Source of the DNA: Bryobacteraceae bacterium
GTDB taxonomy: Bacteria > Acidobacteriota > Terriglobia > Bryobacterales > Bryobacteraceae
Assembly (NCBI GenBank): GCA_035293845.1
Contig: DATGMB010000240.1
Coordinates: forward strand, 1,476 to 65,475
DNA length: 64,000 bases
Direction of reading: 5' to 3'
Below, piece by piece: positions 95 to 63,128 of this stretch. Below the pieces are notes generated by a model. It did not search any database. It had not been told where the DNA came from and worked only from the letters and a program-made list of their open reading frames with translations. Within the stretch, counting starts at the first letter, position 1, and each line of letters begins with the position of its first letter. The translations under genes and the position numbers were made by a program.

Positions 95-2530
95 ATGCTT
101 GCTGGGTTGCAAGACTTAGTCTACGCGGTTCGGCTCTGGCGTAAGTGGCCTGGGTTCGCCCTGGCCGCCGCCGCGACATTAGCACTCGGGATCGGCGTAA
201 ATACGGCGGTCTTCAGCATTATCGACGCAGTCCTGATTCATCGACTTCCCTTTGCCAACGGCGACCGCATTGTTCAGGTCATGCGACACTACTCGTCTGG
301 CCGCGTCGATAACTCACTCTCGATACCTGATTTCGTTGACTTGAAGCAGCAGATGAAGAGTTTCGCAAATATAGCAATTGTGGATTGCTGCCAAGCGAAG
401 CTTATGACCAACACGACCGAGACACAGCGCGTAGTAGTGGCCAAGATTTCACCCGACCTGCTTTCTCTGTTAGGCTTTAAACCACTTTTGGGTCGGAGCT
501 TTACAAGCGAAGAAGCCGAGCCAGGACAGGATACAGTCGCCATTTTGTCTGATCGTTTTTGGCATGAGGGCTTTGCGGGTAGACGTGACGTTGTGGGCCG
601 TTCCGTCATCCTTGATGGAATTGCATTCACGGTCGTCGGTATCCTGCCTCCCGAGTTTCTTCTCATGCCCCAGGCTGACATTCTCGTTCCGTTTACCCTG
701 AAAGAGTCGCGCTTCCGAAATGCACGCTCCTATTGGAATTTCAATGTTTACGCGGAGATCGCCCCGCGATCGTCGCTCGACCACGCGTTGGTTGAGATAA
801 GTGCTGTTGCAGCACGTTTGAGGGCGGCGTATCCGGACACTGACAGAGACCAAGACTATCTGTTGGTCCCTTTGCGGGACCGACTAGTTGGCAAGGTGCG
901 TCCTGCGCTCCTCCTGCTGATGACAGCGGTAGCAATTGTGTTGCTGATCGCGTGTGCAAATGTAAGTATCATGCTTCTGGCGCGAGCTTCGCCACGGCGG
1001 CGCGAGTTCGCGATCCGAGTCGCGCTCGGCGCATCCCGAGGCCGCATCGTCCAGCAACTGTCGATGGAGTGCTTTCTCCTTTCGTTCTTAGGTTTCAGTG
1101 GGGCTATAGCGGCAGCTCGAGGTTTCTTAAAAGTTTTGCTTGTCATCCTCCCTCCGAATCCGGCGCAGTCGCATGATATTGGCCTTAGCCTTCCGGTGCT
1201 CGCGTTCAGTGCGACGCTCGCAATAGGCGCTGCTATTTTAGCCGGCACTGGTCCTGCGTTCGAGGTCAGCATCGGAAATCTGGCAAGCTCGCTGACGGCT
1301 CGCATGTTGTCCGGAAGTGAGCGATGGCGATCGCGCGCGATACTTGTCTTTGGGGAATCCGCACTTGCCTTGATACTAACGGTGGTTGCAGGGTTGGTTC
1401 TGAAGAGCTTCCTTCAGGTGACGCGCCACAATCTCGGCTACGCCACCAAGGGGGTCCTCACCTGTGGCGTATCCGTGGACCGAGCTCATAGATCATTGGA
1501 GGCGGCCACACTTTTGTTCCGGCAAATTCGCGAAGGCTTATCAGAATTGGCCGGCGTGGAGGCGGTGGGGGCCGGGTCCAACGTGCCCACTGAACAAGGC
1601 GGTACCATAAGCTTCACCGTAGCGGGTCGGCCAGTTCCACCGAGCTCCGCCGCGGCACCTGCCGCATTGTGGCGATTCGTCACGCCGGGTTACTTCGAAG
1701 CCCTCGGCCTCCGACTTGTTGGCGGCCGGGTGTTCTCGGAGAGAGATGCTGGTACATCGGAACCGGTGGTGATCATTAATCAAGCATTCGCCAGTAAGTA
1801 TTTTCCTAACGCAAATGCAATCGGACAGCATCTACACCTCGGCGCATCGTTCGACGCGAGTGTGGGCGATATTGGTGAGCGAGAAATTATCGGGATCATT
1901 GCGAACGCCCTTCTCGTATCGCCGTACGAGCCAGACCGGCCAACGCTATATATACCTTTAGCGCAGATCCCGCCAAGCATATCCACTCAGGTGGGCGGTC
2001 TCAATATATTTGTACGCGCATCCGACATTGCAAATCTGAGAAACACAATCAATGGAAGGCTACGTCGTATCGACGCCGGACTATCGATATCGCACGTCCG
2101 CACGGCAGAGGAGTTGCTGGCCGATTACATCACGCCACAGAGGTCTAATCTAATTCTCCTAAGCTCCTTCGCTGGCATCAGCTTATTGCTAGCCGCAATT
2201 GGCATCTACGGGGTCGTCTCGTATTCTGTTGAGGCGCGTCGCTCTGAAATCGGAATTCGGCTTGCTCTTGGCGCTCAGCGGCGCGAAATCGTACGCCTCA
2301 TCCTTTGGCGCGGGATGAAACCGGTAGCGGCTGGCATTATGATCGGCGTTGTGATCGTTCTGCTTATCGGTCGGTCTGTTCAGAGCTTTTTTTACGGTGT
2401 TAGCCCGATCGACCTCCAGACAATTGTAATCGCCAGTCTGCTTTTCATGGGAGTTGCGCTCACGGCCAACCTCCTTCCCACATTGCGCGCGCTCAAAGTC
2501 GATCCCGCACACGTTTTACGGAGCGAGTAG
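95..2530 (+). CDS. ABC transporter permease, MacB/FtsX family, duplicated ADOP-like architecture (811 aa)
   Basis: The ORF is full length. The N-terminus QDLVYAVRLWRKWPGFALAAAATLALGIGVNTAVFS is the typical MacB-like permease start. Two FtsX-type 4-TM modules lie around aa 270-400 and 690-811. The GC content is visibly lower than in the rest of the window. Confidence 0.85.
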   Translation: MLAGLQDLVYAVRLWRKWPGFALAAAATLALGIGVNTAVFSIIDAVLIHRLPFANGDRIVQVMRHYSSGRVDNSLSIPDFVDLKQQMKSFANIAIVDCCQAKLMTNTTETQRVVVAKISPDLLSLLGFKPLLGRSFTSEEAEPGQDTVAILSDRFWHEGFAGRRDVVGRSVILDGIAFTVVGILPPEFLLMPQADILVPFTLKESRFRNARSYWNFNVYAEIAPRSSLDHALVEISAVAARLRAAYPDTDRDQDYLLVPLRDRLVGKVRPALLLLMTAVAIVLLIACANVSIMLLARASPRRREFAIRVALGASRGRIVQQLSMECFLLSFLGFSGAIAAARGFLKVLLVILPPNPAQSHDIGLSLPVLAFSATLAIGAAILAGTGPAFEVSIGNLASSLTARMLSGSERWRSRAILVFGESALALILTVVAGLVLKSFLQVTRHNLGYATKGVLTCGVSVDRAHRSLEAATLLFRQIREGLSELAGVEAVGAGSNVPTEQGGTISFTVAGRPVPPSSAAAPAALWRFVTPGYFEALGLRLVGGRVFSERDAGTSEPVVIINQAFASKYFPNANAIGQHLHLGASFDASVGDIGEREIIGIIANALLVSPYEPDRPTLYIPLAQIPPSISTQVGGLNIFVRASDIANLRNTINGRLRRIDAGLSISHVRTAEELLADYITPQRSNLILLSSFAGISLLLAAIGIYGVVSYSVEARRSEIGIRLALGAQRREIVRLILWRGMKPVAAGIMIGVVIVLLIGRSVQSFFYGVSPIDLQTIVIASLLFMGVALTANLLPTLRALKVDPAHVLRSE

Positions 2531-2538
2531 CTAAATGT

Positions 2539-2958
2539 GTGTTCGGTGGAACCGTCTGGGAGCTTACTTCGAGGTCAGACTTTACGCGCGTCGCCTCGCC
2601 ATTCTCGGAAGCAGCCCAGGTTCACGTTTGGCTCCATGACTGTCGGACTCAATTTGAGAAACTTGCCGCCGCTAGAGGGGAAGAATCGTGGCGCGCTACA
2701 GTCTACGGACCGCGGAAGTTCGAGGATATGGACCGTGATGATCGTGTCCGGGCTTGCTACCAGCACTGTGCTCTGAAGTGGGTCATGTCGGAACGCATGA
2801 CAAATCAGACTCTACGCGAACGGTTTCGGCTCCCAGAGAGCAAGAGCGCGATTGTCTCTCAGGTGATCGGAGCGGCGATCGACTCGGGACTGGTCAAGCC
2901 GGACGAAGCCGTTGGGGGCTCACGAAAGTATGCTCGCTATTTGCCGTTTTGGGCCTGA
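2539..2958 (+). pseudogene. C-terminal remnant of a RecG-like ATP-binding/HTH regulator (AlbA_2/HATPase_c_4 family), N-terminal domains missing
   Basis: This GTG-initiated 139-aa ORF begins 8 nt after the permease stop. Only the tail (...RACYQHCALKWVMSERMTNQTLRERFRLPESKSAIVSQVIGAAIDSGLVKPDE...KYARYLPFWA) looks like the winged-helix C-terminus of ~450-500-aa proteins of that family. The family was recalled from memory and not searched. Confidence 0.4.
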
Positions 2959-3124
2959 GGGGTTCATTTAAGCTAAAGAGTCTTGACAACACCTCCCCGG
3001 GCGTAAGCACTTGAAAGTCAATAGCTTCTTATTTAAGCTCGTCCTTCGCGGTTCCCCACCGAGGGCGTAAGGTGCGATTCCGGGCAGGATGGCGCGATCG
3101 GCACACGGCAGCGTAGCTCCAGGC

Positions 3125-4096
3125 TCAGTACCGCCACAGCCAGCGGGCTTTCTCCAGCACCTTCTCCACATTCGGCAGGAAGGCCTCTTCGAGCGGCGGG
3201 CTGTAGGGCACGGGCGTATCGGGCGCGGTAACGCGGAGAATCGGCCCGTCCAGGTATTCGAAGACCGTCTCGGTGATGCTCACCGCCAGCTCGCCCGCCA
3301 GGCCCGCGGTGCGGGTGTCCTCGTGGACCAGCAGCACCTTCGAGGTCTTTTTGACGCTCTCGCAGACGGTTTCGCGATCGAGCGGCAGCAGCGTGCGCAG
3401 ATCGACCACCTCGGCCGAGGCGCCTTCCGCAGCCAGCCGTTCGGCGGCTTCGAGGGCAGTCCAGACCATGGCGCCGTAGGCCACGATGGTCAGGTCTTTG
3501 CCTTCCCGGACGACCTTGGCCTTGCCGATGGGCACGGTGTAATCGGCGGCAGGAAGGTCCTCCTTGATCTTGCGGTAGAGGCCCTTGTGCTCGAAGAAGA
3601 TGACGGGGTCGTTGTCGCGAATTGCGGCCTTGATGAGGCCTTTGGCATCGTAGGCCGTCGCCGGCGCGACGACCTTCAGGCCGGGCGTCTTGACGAACCA
3701 CATTTCCGGGTTCTGGGAATGGAACGGGCCGCCGTGGATACCGCCGCCCGAGGGAGCGCGGATCACGATCGGCACGGGCGCGTCCCAGCGGTAGCGGCAT
3801 TTGGCGGCGAAATTCACAATCTGGTCGAAACCGCAGGAAATAAAATCGGCGAATTGCATTTCGGCGACCGGCCGAAGGCCGAGAAACGACGCGCCGATGG
3901 CGGCCCCCACAATGGCGGCCTCGGAAATGGGCGTATCGACGACGCGCTTTTCGCCGAAGCGCTCGAGGAAGCCGGCGGTCACCTTGAAGGCGCCGCCATA
4001 AACGCCGATGTCCTCGCCGATGCAGAACACGGCGGGGTCGCGTTCCATTTCTTCCCAAAGTCCTTCACGGATGGCTTCGAGATAGGTGGTGGGCAT
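3125..4096 (-). CDS. 2-oxoacid (pyruvate/acetoin/branched-chain) dehydrogenase E1 component, beta subunit
   Basis: The 323-aa product reads MPTTYLEAIREGLWEEMERDPAVFCIGEDIGVYGGAFKVT...VVDTPISEAAIVGAAIGA, a transketolase-like pyrimidine-binding plus C-terminal domain pattern. It lies 3 nt downstream of the alpha subunit gene. Confidence 0.9.
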   Translation of the reverse strand: MPTTYLEAIREGLWEEMERDPAVFCIGEDIGVYGGAFKVTAGFLERFGEKRVVDTPISEAAIVGAAIGASFLGLRPVAEMQFADFISCGFDQIVNFAAKCRYRWDAPVPIVIRAPSGGGIHGGPFHSQNPEMWFVKTPGLKVVAPATAYDAKGLIKAAIRDNDPVIFFEHKGLYRKIKEDLPAADYTVPIGKAKVVREGKDLTIVAYGAMVWTALEAAERLAAEGASAEVVDLRTLLPLDRETVCESVKKTSKVLLVHEDTRTAGLAGELAVSITETVFEYLDGPILRVTAPDTPVPYSPPLEEAFLPNVEKVLEKARWLWRY

Positions 4097-5295: not shown

Positions 5296-7161
5296 GTGCA
5301 CGCACAGCATGGCTACCCGCGCCCGCAACTGGAGCGGCCGGAGTGGTTCAGCCTGGATGGAGAGTGGGAATTTGCGCTGGATCCGGAGGCGGTCTGGAAA
5401 ACGCCCGGCGAACCGGACTGGAACGCACGCATTCGCGTTCCGTTCGCCCCTGAGACACCCGCCAGCGGCGTCGGGAACACGGGATTTTACCGGGCCTGCT
5501 GGTACCGGCGGCAATTCGATGCGCCCCGTTTGCGGGCGGGCGAGCGGCTGGTGCTGCATCTGTGCGCCGTGGATTCCTGCGCGACGGTGTGGGTCAACGG
5601 CCATCTGGCAGCGACACACCGCGGCGGGTACACCCCGTTCTCCGCGGAGATCACGGAGCACCTGAATGCGGGCGGGCCCCAGACCGTGGTGGTGCGCGCC
5701 TATGACGATCCCGCCGACCTGGCGAAACCGCGCGGCAAGCAGGACTGGCAGCTTCATCCCCACTCGATCTGGTATTACCGGACCACCGGCATCTGGCAGA
5801 GCGTCTGGATGGAGCGGCTGCCGGAGACGGCGCTCGGCCAGGTGCGCTGGACGCCGAACGTCGAGCGCTGGGAGGTCGGCTTCGAGGCCTGGTTGAGCGG
5901 CAAACGGCGCGACGACCTGCGGCTCAACGTGAAGCTCTATGCGGGCGACGACCTGCTGGCGGACGATACCTACGCCGTGGTCGCCCACGAGGTGCACCGG
6001 CGAATCGCGCTCTCCGACCCCGGCATCGACGATTACCGCAACGAGCTGCTGTGGAGCCCCGAAACACCGAACCTGATCTACGCCGAGCTGCGGCTCAGCG
6101 ATGAGCGCGGGCAACTGCTCGATACCGCGCGCAGCTACACGGCGCTGCGCGCGATCGGCGCGCAGGGCGACAAGTTCGTGCTGAACGGGCGGCCCTACCA
6201 GTTGCGGATGGTGCTCGACCAGGGCTATTGGCCGGAGACCGGACTCACCGCGCCGGATGACGATGCCTACCGGCGCGACGTGGAGCTGGCCAAGGCGATG
6301 GGCTTCAACGGCGTGCGCAAGCATCAGAAGATCGAAAGCCCGCGCTACCTGTACTGGGCGGATACGCTGGGGCTGGTGGTGTGGGAGGAGATGCCGAGCG
6401 CGTACCGCTTCACGCGGCAATCGATCGAGCAGGTGACGCGCGAATGGACGGAAGCCCTGGCCCGCGATTCGAGCCACCCGTGCATCGTTGCCTGGGTGCC
6501 CTTCAACGAATCGTGGGGCGTGCCGGACCTGCCCGATAGCCCGGCGCAGCGCCACTACGTGCAGGCGCTCTATCACCTCACCAAGACGCTCGACCCTTCG
6601 CGGCCGGTGATCGGCAACGACGGGTGGGAGAGCGTGGCGACGGACATTATCGGGATTCACGACTACGACGACCAGCCGGAGCGGCTCGCGAAGCGGTACG
6701 TGGTGGAAGAGATTCCGCGGCTGTTCAAGCGCGAGCGTCCGGGAGGCCGGCTGCTGATGCTGCAGGGCGAAGCGCTCGAGCAGCCCATCATGCTGACGGA
6801 GTTCGGCGGCATCGCGTTTTCGCGCGATGCGGCGCATACCTGGGGCTACTCGCGGTCCGATACGGAAGAGGATTTCGGCCGCCGGTATCTGGAGCTGCTG
6901 AAGGTGGTGCGCGCGCTGCCCATGCTGGCCGGCTTCTGCTACACGCAGTTCGCCGATACGTACCAGGAAGCCAACGGACTACTCTATGCCGATCGCACGC
7001 CCAAGTTCGCGATCGAGCACATCGCGCTGGCGACCCGCGGGCCGCGCACGCAGCGCGATTTTCAGATCGTCTGGGAGTGGCGCGAGCGCCTGATGAACCA
7101 ACAGCGGCAGCAGTACGTGATTCCCAGCGAGGACCACCACACGGCGCATGACCCGCGATAA
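5296..7161 (+). CDS. Glycoside hydrolase family 2-like (beta-galactosidase/glucuronidase/mannosidase class)
   Basis: The GTG start is preceded by AAGGAGGGA. The N-terminus YPRPQLERPEWFSLDGEWEF is followed by a sugar-binding beta-sandwich and then a TIM barrel with WVPFNESWG (acid/base) and IMLTEFGG (nucleophile) motifs. Confidence 0.8.
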   Translation: MHAQHGYPRPQLERPEWFSLDGEWEFALDPEAVWKTPGEPDWNARIRVPFAPETPASGVGNTGFYRACWYRRQFDAPRLRAGERLVLHLCAVDSCATVWVNGHLAATHRGGYTPFSAEITEHLNAGGPQTVVVRAYDDPADLAKPRGKQDWQLHPHSIWYYRTTGIWQSVWMERLPETALGQVRWTPNVERWEVGFEAWLSGKRRDDLRLNVKLYAGDDLLADDTYAVVAHEVHRRIALSDPGIDDYRNELLWSPETPNLIYAELRLSDERGQLLDTARSYTALRAIGAQGDKFVLNGRPYQLRMVLDQGYWPETGLTAPDDDAYRRDVELAKAMGFNGVRKHQKIESPRYLYWADTLGLVVWEEMPSAYRFTRQSIEQVTREWTEALARDSSHPCIVAWVPFNESWGVPDLPDSPAQRHYVQALYHLTKTLDPSRPVIGNDGWESVATDIIGIHDYDDQPERLAKRYVVEEIPRLFKRERPGGRLLMLQGEALEQPIMLTEFGGIAFSRDAAHTWGYSRSDTEEDFGRRYLELLKVVRALPMLAGFCYTQFADTYQEANGLLYADRTPKFAIEHIALATRGPRTQRDFQIVWEWRERLMNQQRQQYVIPSEDHHTAHDPR

Positions 7162-8332
7162 GCCAGGCGGCGCCGGCCGGCTGGAAGAGCCGCCCCGCGA
7201 AAGGCTCTTCCGGTCGTTTTGGATGGCCGGCTTCGAGTGCTCCTGCCAGATCAACGCGGCCGGCACGCGGCTCGATATGACGGCGGCTCTGCAGCACGAC
7301 GTGTACGCCGCCGAGGACTACCGGCGGATTCGCGAGCTCGGCATGGAGGTGGCGCGCGACGGCCTGCGCTGGCACCGGATCGACCGCGCCGGGCGGTACG
7401 ACTGGTCCTCCTGGCTCCCGATGCTGGACGCGGCCGGCGAGGCCGGCGTGCAGGTGATCTGGGACCTGTGCCACTACGGCTGGCCGGACGATCTCGACAT
7501 CTTCTCCGGCGCGTTTCTGGAGCGGTTCGCAGCCTATGCCGCGGCGGCGGCGCGGGTGCATGTGGAGCGCACCGGCAATCCGGGCTTCTGGACGCCGGTG
7601 AATGAGATCAATTTCTTCACGTGGGCGGCGACCCGCGACCTGATGTTCCCGTATGCGCACGGGCGCGACGGCGAGCTGAAGCGGCAGCTCGTGCGCGCGG
7701 CGATCGCGGCGGTGCGGGCGGTGCGGGCGGAAGCTCCGGGCGCGCGCTTCGTGTTTCCGGAGCCGCTGATCCACAACGTGCCGCCGCGGTGGCGGCCGTG
7801 GGACAAGGCGCCGTCGCAGATGCAGCGCGCGAGCCAGTTCGAAGCGTGGGACATGATTGCCGGGCGCGTCGAGCCGGAGCTGGGCGGAGCGGAGGAGCAT
7901 CTGGATATCGTAGGGGTCAACTTCTACGCCGCCAATCAGTGGGAGGTGCCCGGCGGGCGGAAGCTGCACTGGGACAACGGTTCGAACGATCCGCGCTGGG
8001 TGCCGCTCCACCGTCTGCTGGCCGAGGTGGCGGAGCGCTACCGCCGTCCGCTGTTTCTGGCCGAGACGAGCCATTACGGCATCGGGCGAGCCGACTGGCT
8101 GAACGAGATCGCGCGCGAATGCCGCAAAACGGTGGACGCCGGCGTGCCGCTCCACGGCGCGTGCCTGTACCCGATCCTCGACCGCTTCGACTGGGAGGAC
8201 CGGACGCACTGGCACAACAGCGGGCTGTGGGACATGGTGCCGAACGGCCGCGGCCACTACCGGCGCGTGCTGAACGAGGAGTATGCGGCGGCGCTGCGGC
8301 GGGCGCAGGAACTCCTTGGGGTTGGGGATTAG
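7148..8332 (+). CDS. Clan GH-A glycoside hydrolase, GH1-like
   Basis: The product has FWMAGFECSCQ..., TPVNEINFF (acid/base-like NE) and LFLAETSHYG (nucleophile-like E). It overlaps the GH2 gene by 14 nt. Its TAG stop lies inside the G-rich heptamer repeat. Confidence 0.6.
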   Translation: MTRDKPGGAGRLEEPPRERLFRSFWMAGFECSCQINAAGTRLDMTAALQHDVYAAEDYRRIRELGMEVARDGLRWHRIDRAGRYDWSSWLPMLDAAGEAGVQVIWDLCHYGWPDDLDIFSGAFLERFAAYAAAAARVHVERTGNPGFWTPVNEINFFTWAATRDLMFPYAHGRDGELKRQLVRAAIAAVRAVRAEAPGARFVFPEPLIHNVPPRWRPWDKAPSQMQRASQFEAWDMIAGRVEPELGGAEEHLDIVGVNFYAANQWEVPGGRKLHWDNGSNDPRWVPLHRLLAEVAERYRRPLFLAETSHYGIGRADWLNEIARECRKTVDAGVPLHGACLYPILDRFDWEDRTHWHNSGLWDMVPNGRGHYRRVLNEEYAAALRRAQELLGVGD

Positions 8333-8350
8333 GGATTGGGGATTGGGGAG
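8317..8350 (+). repeat. G-rich heptamer array GGGGTT-GGGGATT-AGGGATT-GGGGATT-GGGGAG (G-quadruplex-capable), family copy 1
   Basis: Read directly as tggggttggggattagggattggggattggggag. The 19-mer TAGGGATTGGGGATTGGGG (8330-8348) recurs as a reverse complement at 63104-63122. Confidence 0.85.
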
Positions 8351-8368
8351 CCGCGCGAGCGGTAGAAT

Positions 8369-8890
8369 TTGGGCATGCCGCACCAGTTCACCACTTCGTA
8401 TCTCGAGGATTCGCTGGCGATGTTCCGGCAATACAAGCAACAGGCCGAGCGCGCCATGGCGCAGGTCTCCGACGGGCAACTCTTTGCAGTTCTCGACGGG
8501 GAGGCGAATTCGATCGCGCTGATCGTCAAGCACATGGCCGGAAACATGCGGTCGCGGTGGACGGATTTTCTGACCACGGACGGTGAAAAGCCGGACCGCA
8601 ACCGCGACAGCGAATTCGAAGAGCCGCCGGCGACGCGCGAGGAAATGATGCGGCTGTGGGAGGACGGCTGGCGGCGGGTATTCGCGGCGATCGAGCCGCT
8701 GACGGAAGCGGACCTGGCACGCACGGTGACGATCCGCGGCGAGCCGCACTCGGTGATGCAGGCGATCCAGCGGCAGATCGCGCACTATGCCATGCACATC
8801 GGGCAGATCGTTCTGCTGGCGAAGCATTTCGCGGGCGCGGAGTGGAAGACGCTGACGATTCCGAAGAGGAAGGCAGGAGCCAGGAGTTAG
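8369..8890 (+). CDS. DinB-superfamily protein (DUF1572-like)
   Basis: The 173-aa product reads ...NSIALIVKHMAGNMRSRWTDFLTTDGEKPDRNRDSEFE...HYAMHIGQIVLLAKH, a four-helix-bundle DinB-like pattern. The start could be ATG 8375. The last codons and the TAG stop (8888-8890) are encoded by the AGGAG heptamer repeat. Confidence 0.7.
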   Translation: MGMPHQFTTSYLEDSLAMFRQYKQQAERAMAQVSDGQLFAVLDGEANSIALIVKHMAGNMRSRWTDFLTTDGEKPDRNRDSEFEEPPATREEMMRLWEDGWRRVFAAIEPLTEADLARTVTIRGEPHSVMQAIQRQIAHYAMHIGQIVLLAKHFAGAEWKTLTIPKRKAGARS

Positions 8891-8968
8891 GAGACAGGAG
8901 TCAGGAGTCAGGAGTCGGAATGCGGGGCGCGCCTCCAGGCTTGTGAGCTCCTGTCTCCTTCCTCCTAT
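8867..8968. repeat. AGGAG-heptamer / CTCCT inverted-repeat hairpin (family locus A), likely bidirectional terminator
   Basis: The left arm is gaggaaggcaggagccaggagttaggagacaggagtcaggagtcaggagtc and the right arm is gagctcctgtctccttcctcctata. A perfect 12-bp stem forms between aggagacaggag (8889-8900) and ctcctgtctcct (8948-8959). The element sits between convergent genes. Confidence 0.8.
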
Positions 8969-40465: not shown

Positions 40466-43400
40466 ATGAACCGCCTGATCGCTGCCGTAGCGATTCCCGC
40501 CGCGTTCGCCGCGGCGGCGCTTGCCCAGACGCCATCGGTCACCTTCCTGGGCATGGATACCACCACGCGTGGAAACTGGAAAGGAGTATACGGATCGGAT
40601 GGCTATGTGCTATCCGATTATGCGCTCGCCGTGCCTTCCTACAGCCAGTTCAACGCCGTCAACGTCAATCAACGGCTGCTGGATACCTGGAGCTGTTCGC
40701 CCGACCCGGGCTTCACCTGCGATCCCCGCGAGTTGCAAAAGCAGCCCTACGCCTACAGCCCGCTCGAGCGCGTCGAAGGTTATTACTATAGCCGGATGTC
40801 GGACGATTTCCAGTTAAGCACCACCGACGGGCAGACTCACCGTATTGCGCTCTACTTTTGCGACTATGAGTTCTACGGGCGCCAGATTAGCGTAATCGCA
40901 CATAACACCAATACCGGTGCGGTTCTCGACACCCGCACGCTGAATAACTACTCCGGCGGCGTGTACCTCGTCTATAACTACACCGGCAACGTGGATTTCG
41001 AGGTCCTCGATAACATCGTGCCCACCACCGACTACATCCCCAACGGCACCGTCAGCGGCTTCTTCTGGGGTGGCTCGGGCGGCCCGCCCACGCCCGCGCC
41101 CAATGGCCCGGTGGTGAATTTCAGCCCGCTCGGCCCGCAGTCCGGGGCGGTGGTTTCCGGCACGGTGCCGATCCAGGTCTCGCTCGATGACGTTCCCGGC
41201 GTCACCAGCGTACAGCTCCAGCTCGATGGCCAGAACCTCGGGGCGCCCATGCAGTACTTCGTCACCAATCCGATCGGCAACCCGCCGGTGCCGCTGCCCT
41301 TCAACTACAACTGGGACACCACCACCGCAACCAACTGCTCCCATACCCTGACCGCGATCGCCATCGACGCGAATGGATTCCAGGGGGCTTCGCCGGCGCT
41401 CACCCTGACCGTGAATAACGGCCCGTCCAACTGCGGCAACAATCCCACGCCCGTCGCCACTCCGACGTTCAGCCCACTGCCCGGCGCATTCAACACGACC
41501 CAGCAGGTCTCACTGAACACCACCACACCCGGCGCCTCGATCCGCTACACCACCGATGGCGTCACCAACCCCACGGACACGGGCGGCACGCTGTACACCG
41601 GGCAGCCCATCACGGTCGCGAGCACTACCACGATCAAAGCGATCGCCTACGAATCCGGCATGCCGGACAGCAGCATCGCCACCGGAACCTATACGATCAA
41701 CACCGGACCCCGCGGCGGCGGAACGCTGGGCCTGGTGCAGTCGAATGGCGCCGCCAGCGGAGCGCCCGGCAATACTTACCAAACCGTCGCTTTCAATAGC
41801 CCGGTTGCGGGCGGCGATACGATTTTCGTCTTCGCGCAATACTACGGTCCGGCTGTCACGGCCACCGCCACCGATACCTGCAACGACCAGTTCACGCCGA
41901 TCTCCGGCTCGCCGGTCAGCAACGGCTCGAGCGGCACGGCGCATTGGTGGGTGGCGAAGAACGTGGCCGGCGGCAACTGCCAGGTGACCGTGAGCTACAG
42001 TTCGCCCACTTCCTACGGCGGCATCGCCATCCTGGAGGTCTCCGGCCTCGGTCCGAATCCGGCGCTCGATCAGCAGGGCAGCGGAACCGGCAACAGCGGT
42101 ACGGCGTCCGCTTCCCTCAACGCCTCCGTCGCGAACAGCTTCGCCATCGCGCAGGTCTGGTCGGATGCCGGTGGCGGCGTCTCGCTGGGCGGTAACTGGA
42201 CCACCCAGGAGCGCACTCGCTTCTCCACGCTCTACCAGAGCAACATGGCGGGCTGGCAGATTTTGTCCGCGCCCGGTGCGGCCGGGGTCTCTGCCGCGGT
42301 GGGCAGCGGGCCATGGATTGCGATGGTGGCCAATTTCTATAACCCCGGCGGCAGCCCCGGCCAGGTCGCGAACCCGGCGTTCAATCCGCCCGGCGGCGCT
42401 TACACGTCGCCGGTCGCGATCAGCACCACGACCGCGGGCGCCACCATCCGCTACACCACGGACGGCAGCACGCCCTCGGAAACGAACGGAACCATTTACA
42501 CCGCGCCGATCGCGCTGAGCGCCACCACCACCATCAAAGCGATCGCCTATAAATCCGGCCTGACCGATAGCGGCGTCGTCAGCGCAACCTATACCGTAAG
42601 CAAGGGGACCGTGGCCAGCCCGGTGTTCAATCCGCCGGCCGGGGCCTACACCATGCCGGTGGCCATCAGCAGCGCGACACCGGGCGCGACCATCCGCTAC
42701 ACCATCGACGGCAGCACACCATCCGAGACGCACGGCACGGTTTACAGCGCGCCGATCACGCTGGCCGCGACCACGACCATCCAGGCGATCGCTTATGAGA
42801 GCGGGTATACCGATAGCCCCGTGGTCTCCGCCACCTACACCGTCGGAGCGCCGCCGGGCATTTCGCTCGTGCAGTCCAACGCCACCGCGACGTCCGCGCC
42901 CGGCAATACCAGGCAGTCGGCCGCGTTCAGCTCGCCCACGGCCGCCGGCAACACGATTTTCGTGTTCGTCCAGTATTACGGCCCAGCCGTGACCGCCACC
43001 GCCACCGACACCTGCGGCGACCAGTTCCAGGAAATCTCCGGCTCGCCCGTTTCCAACACCAGCGGCGACCGCGGCGCGGCCCACTGGTTCCTCGCGAAGA
43101 ACATCGGCGGCGGCTCCTGCATGGTGACCGTGAACTACAGCTCGCCGACCAACTACGGCGGCGTCGCCATCTTCGAAGTGTCCGGCCTCGGCGCGAATGT
43201 GATTCTCGATCGGTCCGCCAGCGGCTCGGGCACCGGCGGAACGGCTTCGGCATCCATCGCGACCACCCACCCGAACAGCTTCGCCATCGCGCAGGTCTGG
43301 TCGGATGCCGGCGGCGGCGTTTCGCTGGGCGGCAACTGGACGACCCAGGAACGTACCCGCTTCTCGACGCTCTACCAGAGCAACATGGCCGGTTTCCAGG

Positions 43401-48288: not shown

Positions 48289-48353
48289 GACGCAGAGACG
48301 GGGAGACGCAGAGGGATAATCATGGGTTCCTCCGTGTCTCTGCGTCTCTCGTC
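48289..48353. repeat. Inverted repeat built from tandem octamers (ACGCAGAG/ACGGGGAG)
   Basis: The left arm gacgcagagacggggagacgcagaggg faces the right arm cctccgtgtctctgcgtctctcgtc. A perfect 11-bp stem pairs 48303-48313 with 48338-48348. It lies in the divergent rimO / GH5-like intergenic region. Confidence 0.7.
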
Positions 48354-50973: not shown

Positions 50974-52427
50974 AGGATCTGCTCGTGATGAAATTCGGCG
51001 GCACCAGCGTGGGCTCGGCCGAGCGCATGCGCGCCGCCGCCCGTCTCGCCGCCGAGGAAGTCCGGCGGCGGCCCGTGGTGCTGGTGGTTTCGGCGATGTC
51101 CAAAATCACCGACCTGCTGCTCGATACCATGCGGCACGCCGAAGGCGGCGACCAGGCCGGGATCGGGCGCAACCTCGCCGCGCTGCGCGAGCGCCACGAA
51201 CAGGCCTGCCGCGAGCTGCTGCCGGAGCCTTGCCAGGCCGCCGCGCTGGCGCAGGTCCGCGAGCTGATCGCCGAATTCGAGCGCATCGTGCGCGGCATGG
51301 CGCTGCTCAACGAGCGGCCGCCGCGGTCCGTGGATGAAGCGGTGGCGGCCGGCGAACGGCTCTCCTCGGTGCTTGTGGCCGCGCACCTGAACGCCGAAGG
51401 CATTCCGGCCGCGGCGGTCAACGCCTGGAACGTGGTGGTCACGGACGCCGTTTTCGGCAATGCCTCGCCCCTCATGGAGCCCACCCGTGAAAAGGCGAAG
51501 GCGGCGCTGCTGCCGCTGCTGGCCGAAGGGCGAATGCCCGTGGTCACCGGGTTCAACGGCGCGACCGCCGACGGCCGCCCGACCACGCTGGGGCGCGGCG
51601 GCTCCGATTTTTCGGCTTCGATTATTGCCGCCGCTCTCGACGCGGCCGAGCTGTGGATCTGGACCGACGTCGATGGCATCATGAGCGCCGATCCGCGCCT
51701 GGTGCCGGACGCCCAGGTGCTGGCCGAAATCACCTACGCCGAAGCGGCCGAGCTGGCTTATAACGGCGCCAAAGTGCTGCACCCGCGGACGCTGGCGCCG
51801 CTGGTCGAAAAGAAGATTCCGGTCTGGAGTAAGAACAGCTTCGCGCCGGAAAAACCGGGGACGAAGATCGTGCCCGCGGTAGCGTTCGCGGGCGGCGCGC
51901 GCGCCGTGGCTTCCATGCCCAACGTGGCGCTGGTGTCGCTCGAGCCGGCCAGCCCCGAGCTGAACGGCGTGCAGGTCATGGCGCGGGCGCTCGATGCCGT
52001 GGCGCGGTCCAACGTCGAGGTGCTGTTGCTTTCGAGCTCCAGTTACCGCCAGAATTTCTGCTTCCTGGTGCGGCAGGAGGAACTGGAGCGCTCGGTGGCG
52101 GCCATTGAAGCGGCGCTCGCGCTGGAGCTCGCCCACGGCTATCTCAAGCCATTGCAGGTTGACCGCCAGGTCGGGCTGCTGGCCGCGGTCGGGGAGGGCA
52201 TGCAGGGGCAGGCCGGCCTTGCGGGCCGCATTTTTACGGCCATCTCCCGCGCCCATGTGAACGTCATCGCCATCGCACAGGGATCGAGCGAGCTCACCAT
52301 CGCGGTTGTGGTGGGCCGCGACGGCCTCGAACGGGCCGTCCGCGCGGTGCATGCCGAATGCGGCCTCGGCCTGCGCCCGCCGATGCCGGTGTTTACGTTT
52401 CCGATGGCAAGGCGGAGAGAGGAATAG
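50970..52427 (+). CDS. lysC: Aspartate kinase
   Basis: The GTG start overlaps the cmk stop (GTGA). The N-terminus is (M)KDLLVMKFGGTSVGSAERM, with LGRGGSDFSA and C-terminal ACT domains. The TAG stop (52425-52427) lies inside the heptamer repeat. Confidence 0.9.
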   Translation: MKDLLVMKFGGTSVGSAERMRAAARLAAEEVRRRPVVLVVSAMSKITDLLLDTMRHAEGGDQAGIGRNLAALRERHEQACRELLPEPCQAAALAQVRELIAEFERIVRGMALLNERPPRSVDEAVAAGERLSSVLVAAHLNAEGIPAAAVNAWNVVVTDAVFGNASPLMEPTREKAKAALLPLLAEGRMPVVTGFNGATADGRPTTLGRGGSDFSASIIAAALDAAELWIWTDVDGIMSADPRLVPDAQVLAEITYAEAAELAYNGAKVLHPRTLAPLVEKKIPVWSKNSFAPEKPGTKIVPAVAFAGGARAVASMPNVALVSLEPASPELNGVQVMARALDAVARSNVEVLLLSSSSYRQNFCFLVRQEELERSVAAIEAALALELAHGYLKPLQVDRQVGLLAAVGEGMQGQAGLAGRIFTAISRAHVNVIAIAQGSSELTIAVVVGRDGLERAVRAVHAECGLGLRPPMPVFTFPMARRREE

Positions 52428-52505
52428 GAGTCAGGAGCCAGGAGACAGGAGCGGGAATTGCGGCGCCGGCCGCTCCTGACTCGTGTCTTCTGACTCCTCA
52501 CTCCC
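52415..52505. repeat. AGGAG-heptamer / CTCCT inverted-repeat hairpin (family locus B)
   Basis: The sequence reads gagagaggaataggagtcaggagccaggagacaggagcgg ... ccgctcctgactcgtgtcttctgactcctcactccc. The inner perfect 9-bp stem pairs 52446-52454 with 52470-52478 around a 15-nt loop. An outer stem pairs ggagtcag with ctgactcc. Confidence 0.8.
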
Positions 52506-52519
52506 TTCTTCGCTATAAT
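52490..52519 (+). promoter_or_regulatory. Candidate sigma-70 promoter for ppiD
   Basis: CTGACT (4/6 to TTGACA) lies 18 nt upstream of a perfect TATAAT (52514-52519), about 40 nt upstream of the ppiD ATG. The -35 element is embedded in the right arm of the repeat. This is sequence-pattern evidence only. Confidence 0.3.
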
Positions 52520-52558
52520 GGTATTTCCGCATAGGAGTCCAGGAGTCTTCTCACACAT

Positions 52559-54491: not shown

Positions 54492-55166
54492 GTGCTCCAC
54501 TGGCTGCTGGACTTTTACCGCACGCTCACCAACCCGGAGCGCCTGATCGAGCTGCTGAGCACGATGCTTACGGGATGGCTCGGATACGCCGCTCTGTTCG
54601 CGATCGTGTTCTCGGAAACCGGCCTGCTGATCGGCCTGGTGCTGCCCGGCGATTCGCTCCTGTTCACCGTAGGCGTGGTCGCCGGCGCCGGGCACCTGGA
54701 TATTTTTCTGGTCAACCTGCTGCTGGTCACGGCGGCCATCCTGGGCGATTCCACCGGCTACCTGCTGGGCCGCCAGACCGGCCCGCGCATCTTCAGCCGC
54801 CCGGATTCGCGCCTCTTTAAGCAGGAATACGTCACGCGCACCAAGGCGTTTTACGACCGCTACGGCGGCAAGACGATCCTGTTCGCGCGCTTCCTGCCGA
54901 TTGTCCGCACCTTCGCCGCCTACCTGGCCGGCGTGGGCCAAATGCCGTACCTGCGCTTCCTGCCCTTCAGCATGGGCGGCGCGCTCGCCTCGGTCTCCCT
55001 GGTCACGCTGGCGGGCTACGGGCTGGGTGGAATCCCCGTGGTGCGGCAGAATTTCGATAAGGCGATCCTGGGGATCATCGCGCTTTCCCTGTTGCCCAGC
55101 GCGATTGAGTTCTGGAGAGCGCGGCGGGAATCGTCGCGCGCGGCGAACGGGAATTCCAGGAGCTAG
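54492..55166 (+). CDS. DedA-family (SNARE-associated) membrane protein
   Basis: The product reads ...FSETGLLIGLVLPGDSLLFTVG...ARFLPIVRTFAAYLAGV. The TAG stop (55164-55166) is supplied by the heptamer repeat. Confidence 0.85.
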   Translation: MLHWLLDFYRTLTNPERLIELLSTMLTGWLGYAALFAIVFSETGLLIGLVLPGDSLLFTVGVVAGAGHLDIFLVNLLLVTAAILGDSTGYLLGRQTGPRIFSRPDSRLFKQEYVTRTKAFYDRYGGKTILFARFLPIVRTFAAYLAGVGQMPYLRFLPFSMGGALASVSLVTLAGYGLGGIPVVRQNFDKAILGIIALSLLPSAIEFWRARRESSRAANGNSRS

Positions 55167-55298
55167 GAGTTAGGAGCTAGGAGAGCGGCGGCGTAGGCTC
55201 GAAGGAGGCGGCTGGTCTCATCGAGCACGGCAAGCAAATTCGCCCGTGTCGCCGTAGCCCAGGTCTTGCGTCAGGATCCTAACTCCTGCTCCCCTATA
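55157..55298. repeat. AGGAG-heptamer / CTCCT inverted repeat (family locus C) between convergent genes
   Basis: The left arm is ccaggagctaggagttaggagctaggagagc and the right arm is gtcaggatcctaactcctgctcccctata. A perfect 11-bp pairing joins aggagttagga (55165-55175) to tcctaactcct (55277-55287). Confidence 0.75.
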
Positions 55299-59757: not shown

Positions 59758-59809
59758 GTCAGGAGCTAGGAGCTAGGAGCCACAGGACGCGCTCCTTCGC
59801 TCCAGGAGC
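59758..59809. repeat. AGGAG-heptamer / CTCCT repeat (family locus D)
   Basis: The sequence is gtcaggagctaggagctaggagcc-acaggacgc-gctccttcgctcc-aggagc. It spans the 3' end of the GNAT gene and the 5' leader of the dienelactone hydrolase gene. Confidence 0.7.
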
Positions 59810-63100: not shown

Positions 63101-63128
63101 GGCCCCCAATCCCCAATCCCTATTTCCC
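63101..63128 (-). repeat. G-rich heptamer array, family copy 2 (minus-strand sense TAGGGATTGGGGATTGGGGGCC)
   Basis: The plus strand reads ggcccccaatccccaatccctatttccc. Its reverse complement shares the 19-mer TAGGGATTGGGGATTGGGG with 8330-8348. Confidence 0.85.

Follow-up and report, generated by a model that had tools for sequence, protein, structure and literature searches.

Introduction

What places tandem heptanucleotides at the very ends of genes, and how do they come to face each other there, across short spacers, as complementary arms? This question is raised by a stretch of 64,000 nucleotides from Bryobacteraceae bacterium (Acidobacteriota; NCBI GenBank assembly GCA_035293845.1, contig DATGMB010000240.1, positions 1,476 to 65,475 of the forward strand), hereafter the window, in which arrays of the unit AGGAGNN were found at four loci, A to D. 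An initial annotation, made from the letters alone, had presented locus A, between a DinB-like and an amidohydrolase gene, as the type of an undescribed family of hairpin repeats built from Shine-Dalgarno (SD)-like units. We consider it somewhat better than an even chance (probability about 0.55) that the arrays are fast-changing heptanucleotide simple sequence repeats (SSRs) anchored at open reading frames (ORFs), the paired ones giving hairpins at gene 3' ends, and that they are neither a conserved gene-specific regulatory RNA nor a ribosome decoy.

Bacterial tandem repeats of heptamers were first described in 1990 and have counted as the commonest class of long SSRs since 2007, yet an explanation of their origin and function is still lacking. 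Described members comprise the heptanucleotide long SSRs and the cyanobacterial STRR (Mazel, 1990; Mrazek, 2007, as summarised in PMC4679880), the G-rich repeats GGGNATC and GGGGAYT known from Xanthomonas and Nostoc (Rehm, 2015; PMC4692102) and the TAACTGA arrays that occur in marine Beggiatoaceae, Cyanobacteria and Bacteroidetes (MacGregor, 2015; PMC4679880). For the G-rich repeats a positional rule was formulated, according to which the G-rich strand lies near the 5' neighbouring ORF, stop codons are overlapped and spacers between divergent ORFs are rarely occupied (Rehm, 2015). Paired heptamers were reported from Geobacter metallireducens as "class 3 global regulator binding sites" (Aklujkar, 2009; PMC2700814, Fig. 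S5, Table S4).

Results

Array-bearing gene ends in the window

The motif AGGAGNNAGGAG was matched 15 times in the window, where 100 dinucleotide-preserving shuffles of the 64 kb gave a mean expectation of 0.02, and all 15 matches fell within the four loci. With 6.1, 3.9, 3.7 and 2.9 copies of period 7 in TRF and exact runs of 6, 4, 4 and 3 AGGAG cores, the related arrays that had been noted besides locus A proved real (52426-52451, four units; 55158-55183, four; 59761-59779, three). All arrays lie at ORF boundaries, and five ORF ends (DinB, DedA, aspartate kinase, amidohydrolase and GFO) are flush with a sense-oriented array. The three paired loci are made up as follows.

8873-8916, plus strand: locus A left arm, six AGGAGNN units with cores at 8875-8914 (sequence read, TRF, exact-core run)
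8917-8947, no strand: locus A loop, GGAATGCGGGGCGCGCC... (sequence, folding, comparisons)
8948-8968, minus strand: locus A right arm, three AGGAG units (TAGGAGGAAGGAGACAGGAG), the first holding the stop codon of the Amidohydro_2 gene
52425-52454, plus strand: locus B left arm, the aspartate kinase TAG (52425-52427) fused to four AGGAG units, then CGG (sequence, core runs, gene map)
52455-52469, no strand: locus B apical GC-rich stem-loop, GAATTGCGGCGCCGG (sequence, folding)
52470-52498, minus strand: locus B right arm, four units in the register of the left arm, two of them with mutated cores, AGAAG and ACGAG (sequence, folding, alignment)
55158-55183, plus strand: locus C left arm, made up of four AGGAG units; unit 1 encodes the final codons of the VTT/DedA gene and its TAG (55164-55166) (sequence, core runs)
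55184-55275, minus strand: locus C "loop", the 3' remnant (55166-55277) of a 23S_rRNA_IVP (PF05635) gene (comparison with a relative, L202; tblastn)
55276-55296, minus strand: locus C right-arm remnant, TAGGGGAGCAGGAGTTAGGAT on the minus strand, starting at the TAG 55294-55296 of the GFO_IDH_MocA gene (sequence, comparison)

At locus A, whose placement between convergent genes is borne out by the ORF map, the array holds six perfect period-7 units (gcAGGAG ccAGGAG ttAGGAG acAGGAG tcAGGAG tcAGGAG tc) and not the seven first counted, its flanks (gaagagg and ggaatgc) being merely degenerate. Direct reading reproduced the perfect 12-bp stem between 8889-8900 (AGGAGACAGGAG) and 8948-8959 (CTCCTGTCTCCT) exactly, and AGGAG 8882-8886 can pair in addition with CTCCT 8962-8966 across a 2x2 internal loop; the RNA fold reaches -59.5 kcal/mol (z -4.6). 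Both genes indeed end inside the element, the DinB_2/DUF1572 ORF (171 aa, ATG 8375) at TAG 8888-8890 and the Amidohydro_2 ORF (423 aa) at the minus-strand TAG 8965-8967, but the view that each arm opens with TAGGAG fails on the DinB side, where the TAG lies within the third unit. The last residues, held to be repeat-encoded in both proteins, are so in DinB, where units 1-3 specify the final AGARS and the stop codon, as against the tail RSEGMARKHA* of a 96%-identical homologue; in the amidohydrolase just the last codon and the stop differ (..LYGI* in the window, ..LYGL* in homologues of the same length).

Locus B, with four exact period-7 units at 52426-52451, folds to -64.5 kcal/mol (z -5.6). 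Its array leaves the length of aspartate kinase unchanged, the TGA of relatives having become the TAG of TAGGAG in the same codon. With locus A it shares the unit order ..CC..AC.. and a loop motif GGAAT(T)GCGG, continued in both loops as ..GCGCC. The right arm includes a -35-like CTGACT, 18 nt before the TATAAT (52514-52519) of the following SurA/PpiC-type gene.

At locus C the VTT/DedA gene converges with the GFO_IDH_MocA gene, and the fold of -65.8 kcal/mol has a weaker z (-2.8) than those of A and B. DedA gains three codons and its TAG from the array, while the GFO gene retains the ancestral TAG, directly after which the array begins.

The label "stop-codon-donating" given in the initial annotation is thus accurate, as TAGs are supplied to DinB, DedA, aspartate kinase and the amidohydrolase, and it follows from the arrays abutting ORF ends: since they start at or overlap the stop codon, they overwrite a few C-terminal codons and often supply a TAG. 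Covariation is not meaningful here: hairpins number just three, pairing between their arms runs through the repeated cores with mismatched spacer dinucleotides on the two sides, and the interiors are not alignable.

Turnover among close relatives

Relatives at graded distances allowed the arrays to be followed over short evolutionary intervals. In L207 (99.7% nucleotide identity) locus A is identical. L191 (93-96%), in which DinB ends in RSEGMARKHA*, has no array at either of the two sites flanking this gene and carries extra DNA there, 0.95 kb at 780-1790 with a MocR-like aminotransferase fragment and 1.4 kb at 2330-3790 with two ORFs; as these lie exactly at the array sites of the window, the arrays coincide with indel junctions. 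In L208 (DinB 86% amino acid identity) AGGAG arrays of 2-3 and 5 units are flush with both locus A stops and enclose 240 nt with a 48-aa ORF. In P0122 (DinB 90%) the protein tail RRQESGDGSRNAARSS reads as a translated A-type array followed by the translated loop sequence of locus A. Arranged by DinB amino acid identity, the locus A array is present at 100, 99, 90 and 86% and absent at 96, 89, 88 and 79%. Eighty amidohydrolase orthologues (57-94% amino acid identity) all end at the codon of the window protein and lack the array, and their 444 kb contain no period-7 array at all; a conserved cis-regulatory element was rejected on the ground of this absence from all 80.

The second half of the window could be compared with L202 (GCA_037025425.1; 96% nucleotide identity across window positions 44.5-64 kb) and with L205 (88%), which has none of these arrays; GCA_037025125.1 is likewise free of arrays over 20 kb. 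Over about 90 nt the locus B spacer differs wholly from that of L202, with sharp borders and flanks about 97% identical. Starting at the stop codon and ending about 10 nt short of the following gene's TATAAT, the 87-nt AGGAG hairpin of the window replaces a hairpin of another repeat family (TTGACGCAGAGAC..), which folds to -57.1 kcal/mol (z -8.0) in L202 and is decayed in L205 (z 0.2). No target-site duplication was found at locus B in the alignment with these two relatives, the spacer being replaced.

At locus C the arms of L202 enclose an intact 23S_rRNA_IVP gene of 122 aa (L202 10679-11047), the stop codon of which lies inside the left array, while the right array sets AGGAGG 9 nt before its GTG start. 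Relative to L202 the window lacks 285 bp of this gene by deletion, and unit numbers differ as well (left arm four in the window versus five in L202; right arm a remnant versus five). In L205 neither arms nor IVP gene occur, and the DedA TGA and the GFO TAG stand 45 nt apart with ordinary sequence between them.

To judge from these comparisons, the arrays are lineage-specific, young, variable in unit number and patchy, as SSRs behave and unlike a conserved regulatory RNA.

Position, orientation and pairing

Positional figures were taken from a greedy ORF map of cellular loci carrying AGGAG arrays. The enrichment at gene 3' ends suggested by locus A was borne out, as the array starts within -16 to +15 nt of the stop codon in 46 of 72 cases having a same-strand gene on the 5' side, with a mode of -2, i.e. 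TAGGAG; median distances in the other three flank classes are 54-140 nt. AGGAG arrays are nearer the ORF on the 5' side of the G-rich strand in 80 of 100 cases (80:20) and other heptamer arrays in 73 of 98 (73:25), which is exactly the result obtained for GGGNATC repeats (Rehm, 2015; PMC4692102). Arrays occupy 17% of convergent and 14% of co-directional spacers but 5% of divergent ones, a roughly three-fold depletion in the spacers that are the longest.

Pairing is oriented too. Within 150 nt of arrays, CTCCT occurs 87 times downstream versus 11 times upstream, and arrays with at least two CTCCT nearby have them downstream in 18 cases versus 1, an 18:1 prevalence of "AGGAG-first" hairpins. A geometric reading is the simplest: if each array is anchored at an ORF end with its G-rich strand pointing outward, two arrays flanking a short spacer come to lie inverted and give a hairpin on both strands.

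Spread and class membership

The initial annotation had made its family depend on a spread beyond the window, and this was found: the pattern (AGGAGNN)3AGGAG has at least 120 matches in GTDB species genomes, one genome being scanned per species, and at least 120 in viral contigs. Among the matches listed, arrays of at least four units occur in at least 15 phyla, including a metagenome-assembled genome of Bryobacteraceae and other Acidobacteriota, and represent Cyanobacteriota, Planctomycetota, Verrucomicrobiota, Acidobacteriota, Bacteroidota, several proteobacterial classes, Nitrospirota, Gemmatimonadota, Chloroflexota and others. The same units, AGGAGTC, AGGAGTT, AGGAGTG, AGGAGAC and AGGAGGC, recur across phyla in genomes of 31-77% GC.

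In 877 kb surrounding AGGAG arrays from about 120 genomes, a sample biased in that loci were picked by the presence of such arrays, 324 arrays of period 7 stand against 24, 24, 16 and 12 of periods 5, 6, 8 and 9. No AGGAG is found in 112 of the 324, which have dozens of other units instead, GGGGATT and TAACTGA (unit AACTGAT) among them. The dominance of period 7, the many units and the wide spread make AGGAGNN one sequence type of general heptanucleotide tandem repeats. Readings as CRISPR, tRNA-linked or coding repeats were excluded by the period of 7 and the ORF map.

The claim that the repeat belongs to no described family was therefore given up, since it falls among the heptanucleotide tandem repeats of Mrazek (2007, as far as summarised in PMC4679880) and Rehm (2015, PMC4692102). 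A literature search on exact words (AGGAGTC, AGGAGTT, TCAGGAG and the like) returned no paper naming AGGAG units, and with Rfam 15 the whole window gave no match at gathering score, just sub-threshold eukaryotic miRNA-precursor hairpins appearing around A and B. The observation is an AGGAG-type, acidobacterial and largely paired addition to a known class.

AGGAG arrays often abut other heptamer arrays (GCCAGTA, CTCGCTA, CTGGAAG, GCCAGAA, GCTCACA, GGAACCA) as mosaics, as seen in L004, L005, L078, L082, L084 and L097 from various phyla.

Terminator-like features, translation starts and core constraint

Hairpins A and C lie between convergent genes, and B between the aspartate kinase stop codon and the TATAAT of the next gene, which are positions typical of terminators. 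A canonical intrinsic terminator was found at none of the three; U-tracts are missing, the tails reading AUAUCCCG, CACUCCCUUCUUCG and the like. The hairpins are likely to be 3'-end structures without U-tract, which would serve as terminator, insulator or stabiliser.

The idea that the arrays act as decoys for ribosomes or the 16S 3' end found no support, as heptamers with other cores (GGGGATT and many more) obey identical rules. Of 651 units, 414 have T and 85 have G directly after AGGAG (position 6), and being mostly T this base does not extend complementarity to the anti-SD. An SD-like match, even of 4 nt, precedes just 17 of 51 called starts in this lineage. TAnnnT boxes were seen 6-8 nt upstream of many ATGs (L202, L205, L001), and one such box, ggTAGAATttgggcATG, stands upstream of the DinB start (window 8352-8377); together with the few SD-like motifs, these boxes suggest that leaderless mRNAs, or mRNAs with very short leaders, are frequent in the lineage. 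No array of the window has the placement of a functional SD, about 5-10 nt before a start, as the arrays are 50-110 nt from downstream starts or face gene ends; across the cellular loci, a downstream start follows at a distance of no more than 20 nt in about 8 of 49 sense arrays.

Among 267 units beyond the search seed, per-position variation is 3.8% in the AGGAG core and 10.1% in the spacer bases, a difference biased toward intact cores by the definition of the arrays; a comparison confined to units at array edges was, by its design, not informative. This possible core constraint hints weakly at a protein-binding role.

Discussion

Origin of the arrays and of their pairing

Under the preferred reading of ORF-anchored SSRs, slipped-strand mispairing would extend arrays from short local seeds until selection at the ORF boundary halted their growth. 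Where both ORFs of a short spacer had acquired an array, a long imperfect AGGAG...CTCCT hairpin would result on both strands. In the transcript this hairpin would most likely act as a bidirectional terminator or insulator and block 3' exonucleases, much as REP hairpins do.

Several observations weigh against this account. Passive slippage with selection alone leaves both the outward polarity of the G-rich strand and the preference for 7 nt unexplained. At locus B the sharp borders give the appearance of a spacer exchanged in one piece and not of gradual growth, and this, together with the unit order and loop motif common to A and B, hints at copying between loci. Locus D, described below, runs counter to the orientation rule, since it abuts a stop codon in antisense. 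Across genomes, just about 15% of AGGAG arrays have an inverted partner and a hairpin therefore does not define them, and as no hairpin has a U-tract, the terminator role is read from position only. Finally, one group of jumbo-phage contigs has perfect hairpins of the opposite, CTCCT-first order, (CTCCTGC)n-ccgt-(AGGAGGC)n, which makes the orientation rule strong but not universal.

Alternative explanations

The sharp exchange at locus B against a 96%-identical relative, and the likeness of unit order and loop in A and B, can be read in another way, namely that the pairs form a hairpin element, mobile or copy-pasted and similar to a MITE, a REPIN or an intervening sequence, with AGGAG/CTCCT as terminal inverted repeats. 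It would insert from stop to stop, at times bringing a small gene along, and would later shrink to an empty hairpin. Such an element would fit the L202 arms at locus C, which enclose the 23S_rRNA_IVP gene in the architecture of an intervening sequence (IVS), with L205 having neither, as well as the 240 nt with a 48-aa ORF between the arms of L208 and the patchy presence of locus A among relatives; in the Coxiella IVS, too, the S23p ORF is preceded by a tandem heptamer, GACAGAT, in two to three copies that vary between strains (PMC4990558). However, the alignment at locus B shows neither a target-site duplication nor a transposase in view, the arms are not copies of one another (unit numbers and spacer dinucleotides differ), and the central regions of A, B and C are unrelated. 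As to internal sequence of the kind that MITE copies share, A and B have just GGAAT(T)GCGG..GCGCC in common and the interior of C is a gene remnant, a comparison limited to these few copies. About 85% of arrays elsewhere are unpaired and keep the same polarity. In particular, a general tie of the arrays to 23S_rRNA_IVP was rejected, because tblastn with the L202 protein on all loci (877 kb, about 150 arrays) matched locus C and the window remnant and no further homologue. We regard the mobile element as unlikely.

The rapid turnover and the absence from relatives could also mean that the arrays are functionless mutational debris, tolerated in the least constrained 3'-end spacers, with hairpins of no effect on expression; the decay in L205 of the hairpin at the locus B site (z 0.2) and the unpaired state of locus D and many other arrays agree with this. 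Against it, structures of -52 to -65 kcal/mol in or just after coding ends are unlikely to leave transcription and RNA decay unaffected, compact phage genomes are rich in arrays, and the 18:1 orientation with the three-fold avoidance of divergent spacers requires a directional force. Pure debris is accordingly judged rather improbable.

Little credence, somewhat less again, is given to the arrays as multivalent sites for an oligomeric nucleic-acid-binding protein reading a 7-nt register, either on DNA (IHF/HU-like) or on RNA (HutP-like NAG-N4 or CsrA-like GGA), with an effect on termination or translation at gene ends. HutP, for example, reads UAG triplets with 4-nt spacing. The lower variation of the core and the recurrence of a few units across phyla of 31-77% GC speak in favour, and proteins have been invoked for related arrays, the paired MTYCTGA heptamers having been annotated as putative global-regulator sites (Aklujkar, 2009; PMC2700814) and binding of S1, Csp or CsrA having been proposed for TAACTGA arrays (MacGregor, 2015; PMC4679880). 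Yet the core-constraint test is biased by array finding, dozens of unrelated heptamer units in the same genomes would demand many readers, the arrays are not conserved at orthologous genes, and in the hairpin form the motifs are base-paired.

It is very improbable, though it would explain much, that the arrays are not products of passive slippage but stem from a polar process, so far unrecognised and sporadic among lineages, in which G-rich heptamers are made from the ORF end outward, for example by repeat addition at intergenic breaks followed by rejoining, in the manner of telomere healing. If true, this would jointly account for the 7-nt register, the outward G-rich strand and the AGGAG-first inverted pairs, and would also cover the stop-to-stop replacement of spacers, the coincidence with indel junctions (L191, L202) and the same units in at least 15 phyla and phages.

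Capture of the 30S subunit or 16S 3' end at stop codons by SD mimics (AGGAG) and anti-SD mimics (CUCCU), as decoy, re-initiation platform or ribosome-dependent stabiliser, for which the STAB-SD stabilisers of Bacillus offer a precedent, can draw on the identity of AGGAG with the SD core, on arrays starting right at stop codons, on the AGGAGG before the IVP GTG in L202 and on the few sense arrays at most 20 nt from a start, but is scarcely credible given non-SD heptamers under the same positional rules, a position 6 seldom G, few SD-preceded and many apparently leaderless starts, window arrays too far from downstream starts with their SD-like units sequestered in hairpins, and elements dispensable in close relatives.

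Relation to known repeat systems

With the STRR and long SSRs the window arrays have in common the 7-nt unit, dispersed and mostly intergenic loci, a sporadic phylogeny and variable unit numbers, and the GGGGATT unit known from Nostoc is itself present in the window. They differ in the unit AGGAGNN, an invariant SD-like core with two variable bases that cannot form a canonical four-tract G-quadruplex, in the acidobacterial host, and in that three of four window loci are inverted pairs with hairpins of 75-140 nt.

The class 3 sites of Geobacter are eight opposite-strand pairs of about five tandem MTYCTGA heptamers each (..CTCCTGAATTCTGAATTCTGACTCCTGA..), annotated as following one gene on its 3' side and preceding another on its 5' side. 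The window unit TCAGGAG, read in reverse complement as CTCCTGA, fits their consensus, a likeness of architecture that need not mean homology; their units are mostly ATTCTGA or CTTCTGA with some CTCCTGA, were read as IHF/HU-type sites, and no relation to stop codons was reported (Aklujkar, 2009).

TAACTGA arrays are likewise intergenic tandem heptamers (2-43 copies), occupy the same odd set of phyla, and were suspected of horizontal spread or a post-transcriptional role (MacGregor, 2015); they were also found here in loci carrying AGGAG arrays. Unlike the latter, they lie mostly just upstream of starts and are inverted in just 1 of 170 cases.

REP, BIME and REPIN elements resemble the paired arrays as hairpins past stop codons, often between convergent genes and in inverted pairs. 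REP hairpins affect mRNA 3'-end stability and termination. Their arms, however, are unique palindromes with a GTAG-type 5' tetranucleotide, mobilised by RAYT, whereas the window arms are tandem heptamers of variable number; no RAYT was seen in the window, a genome-wide search not having been made.

The intervening sequences of 23S rRNA with an S23p ORF (Coxiella, Leptospira; PMC4990558) are comparable to locus C only, where the PF05635 gene of L202 likewise lies between complementary arms, but outside rRNA. This S23p-type four-helix-bundle gene (Avd family) is intact in three related assemblies, with an IVS-like architecture in an intergenic position.

To the known class the present data add an SD-like unit, of which one small set of variants recurs in at least 15 phyla and in phages, and before/after comparisons between genomes 4-12% apart, in which the birth of an array, unit change, the overwriting of stops and tails and the replacement of an older hairpin can be followed. 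They further offer a geometric reading of the paired form, which Geobacter has too and for which no explanation had been given there: two ORF-anchored arrays make a hairpin. For annotation they are a warning, since genomes of this sort owe many of their gene ends, stop codons and short C-terminal tails to repeats, and these differ between strains. Should the hairpins prove to terminate or stabilise transcripts, Acidobacteria would have in them a self-renewing supply of 3'-end structures without U-tract.

Other repeats in the window and in phages

Three further heptamer arrays were recorded.

59761-59779, plus strand: locus D, unpaired array of three CTAGGAG units, antisense between two minus-strand genes (sequence, core runs)
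8316-8349, plus strand: (TTGGGGA)n, a second heptamer family of GGGGATT type (TRF, comparison with relatives)
63104-63120, minus strand: (CCCCAAT)2+, equal to GGGGATT on the minus (sense) strand, between DivIC-like and HEAT-repeat genes (TRF)

Locus D lies between GNAT and dienelactone hydrolase genes, and its CTA 59773-59775 is the TAG stop of the GNAT gene. Three units in the window stand against six in L202, the spacers differing as well, and the RNA fold is not significant (z -1.3).

The (TTGGGGA)n and (CCCCAAT)n arrays are the classic heptamer of cyanobacterial STRR1 and of the Nostoc GGGGAYT type. In the former a variant unit, TTAGGGA, provides the TAG (8330-8332) of the ORF 7148-8332; the array is absent from L191 and L208, which have just one GGGATTAG or TAG there, and the single GGGATTAG at the end of a 394-aa ORF in L191 is a plausible seed of the window array. 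The CCCCAAT units number at least two in the window, three in L202 and none in L205.

Near locus B, a promoter-like site at 52490-52519 precedes the SurA/PpiC-type gene, its TATAAT being conserved in L202 and L205. Further on, ATAGGAGTCCAGGAGTC (52531-52547; two AGGAGTC with 8-nt spacing) lies 13 nt upstream of the ATG 52559. Its conservation in L202, and its near-conservation in L205, make it older than the array of locus B; it could be a seed or an SD region.

The motif TTGACGCAGAGAC(A/G)C(A/G)GAGAC marks a second dispersed hairpin family, the arms of which are short tandem repeats with a period of about 8; copies were seen in the window at 48289-48346 (-50.8 kcal/mol, z -6.2), in L202 at 3777-3842 and 7932-8001, and in L205 at 7949.

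The phage contigs L229, L233, L253, L256, L303 and L316 (IMG/VR 3300023029_000004, 3300023035_000005; 95-157 kb) carry many copies of (CTCCTGC)5-6-ccgt-(AGGAGGC)5, with the full AGGAGG SD core. A 246-bp tandem duplication (1.9 copies, 78% match in TRF) was also recorded in the window at 42373-42843.

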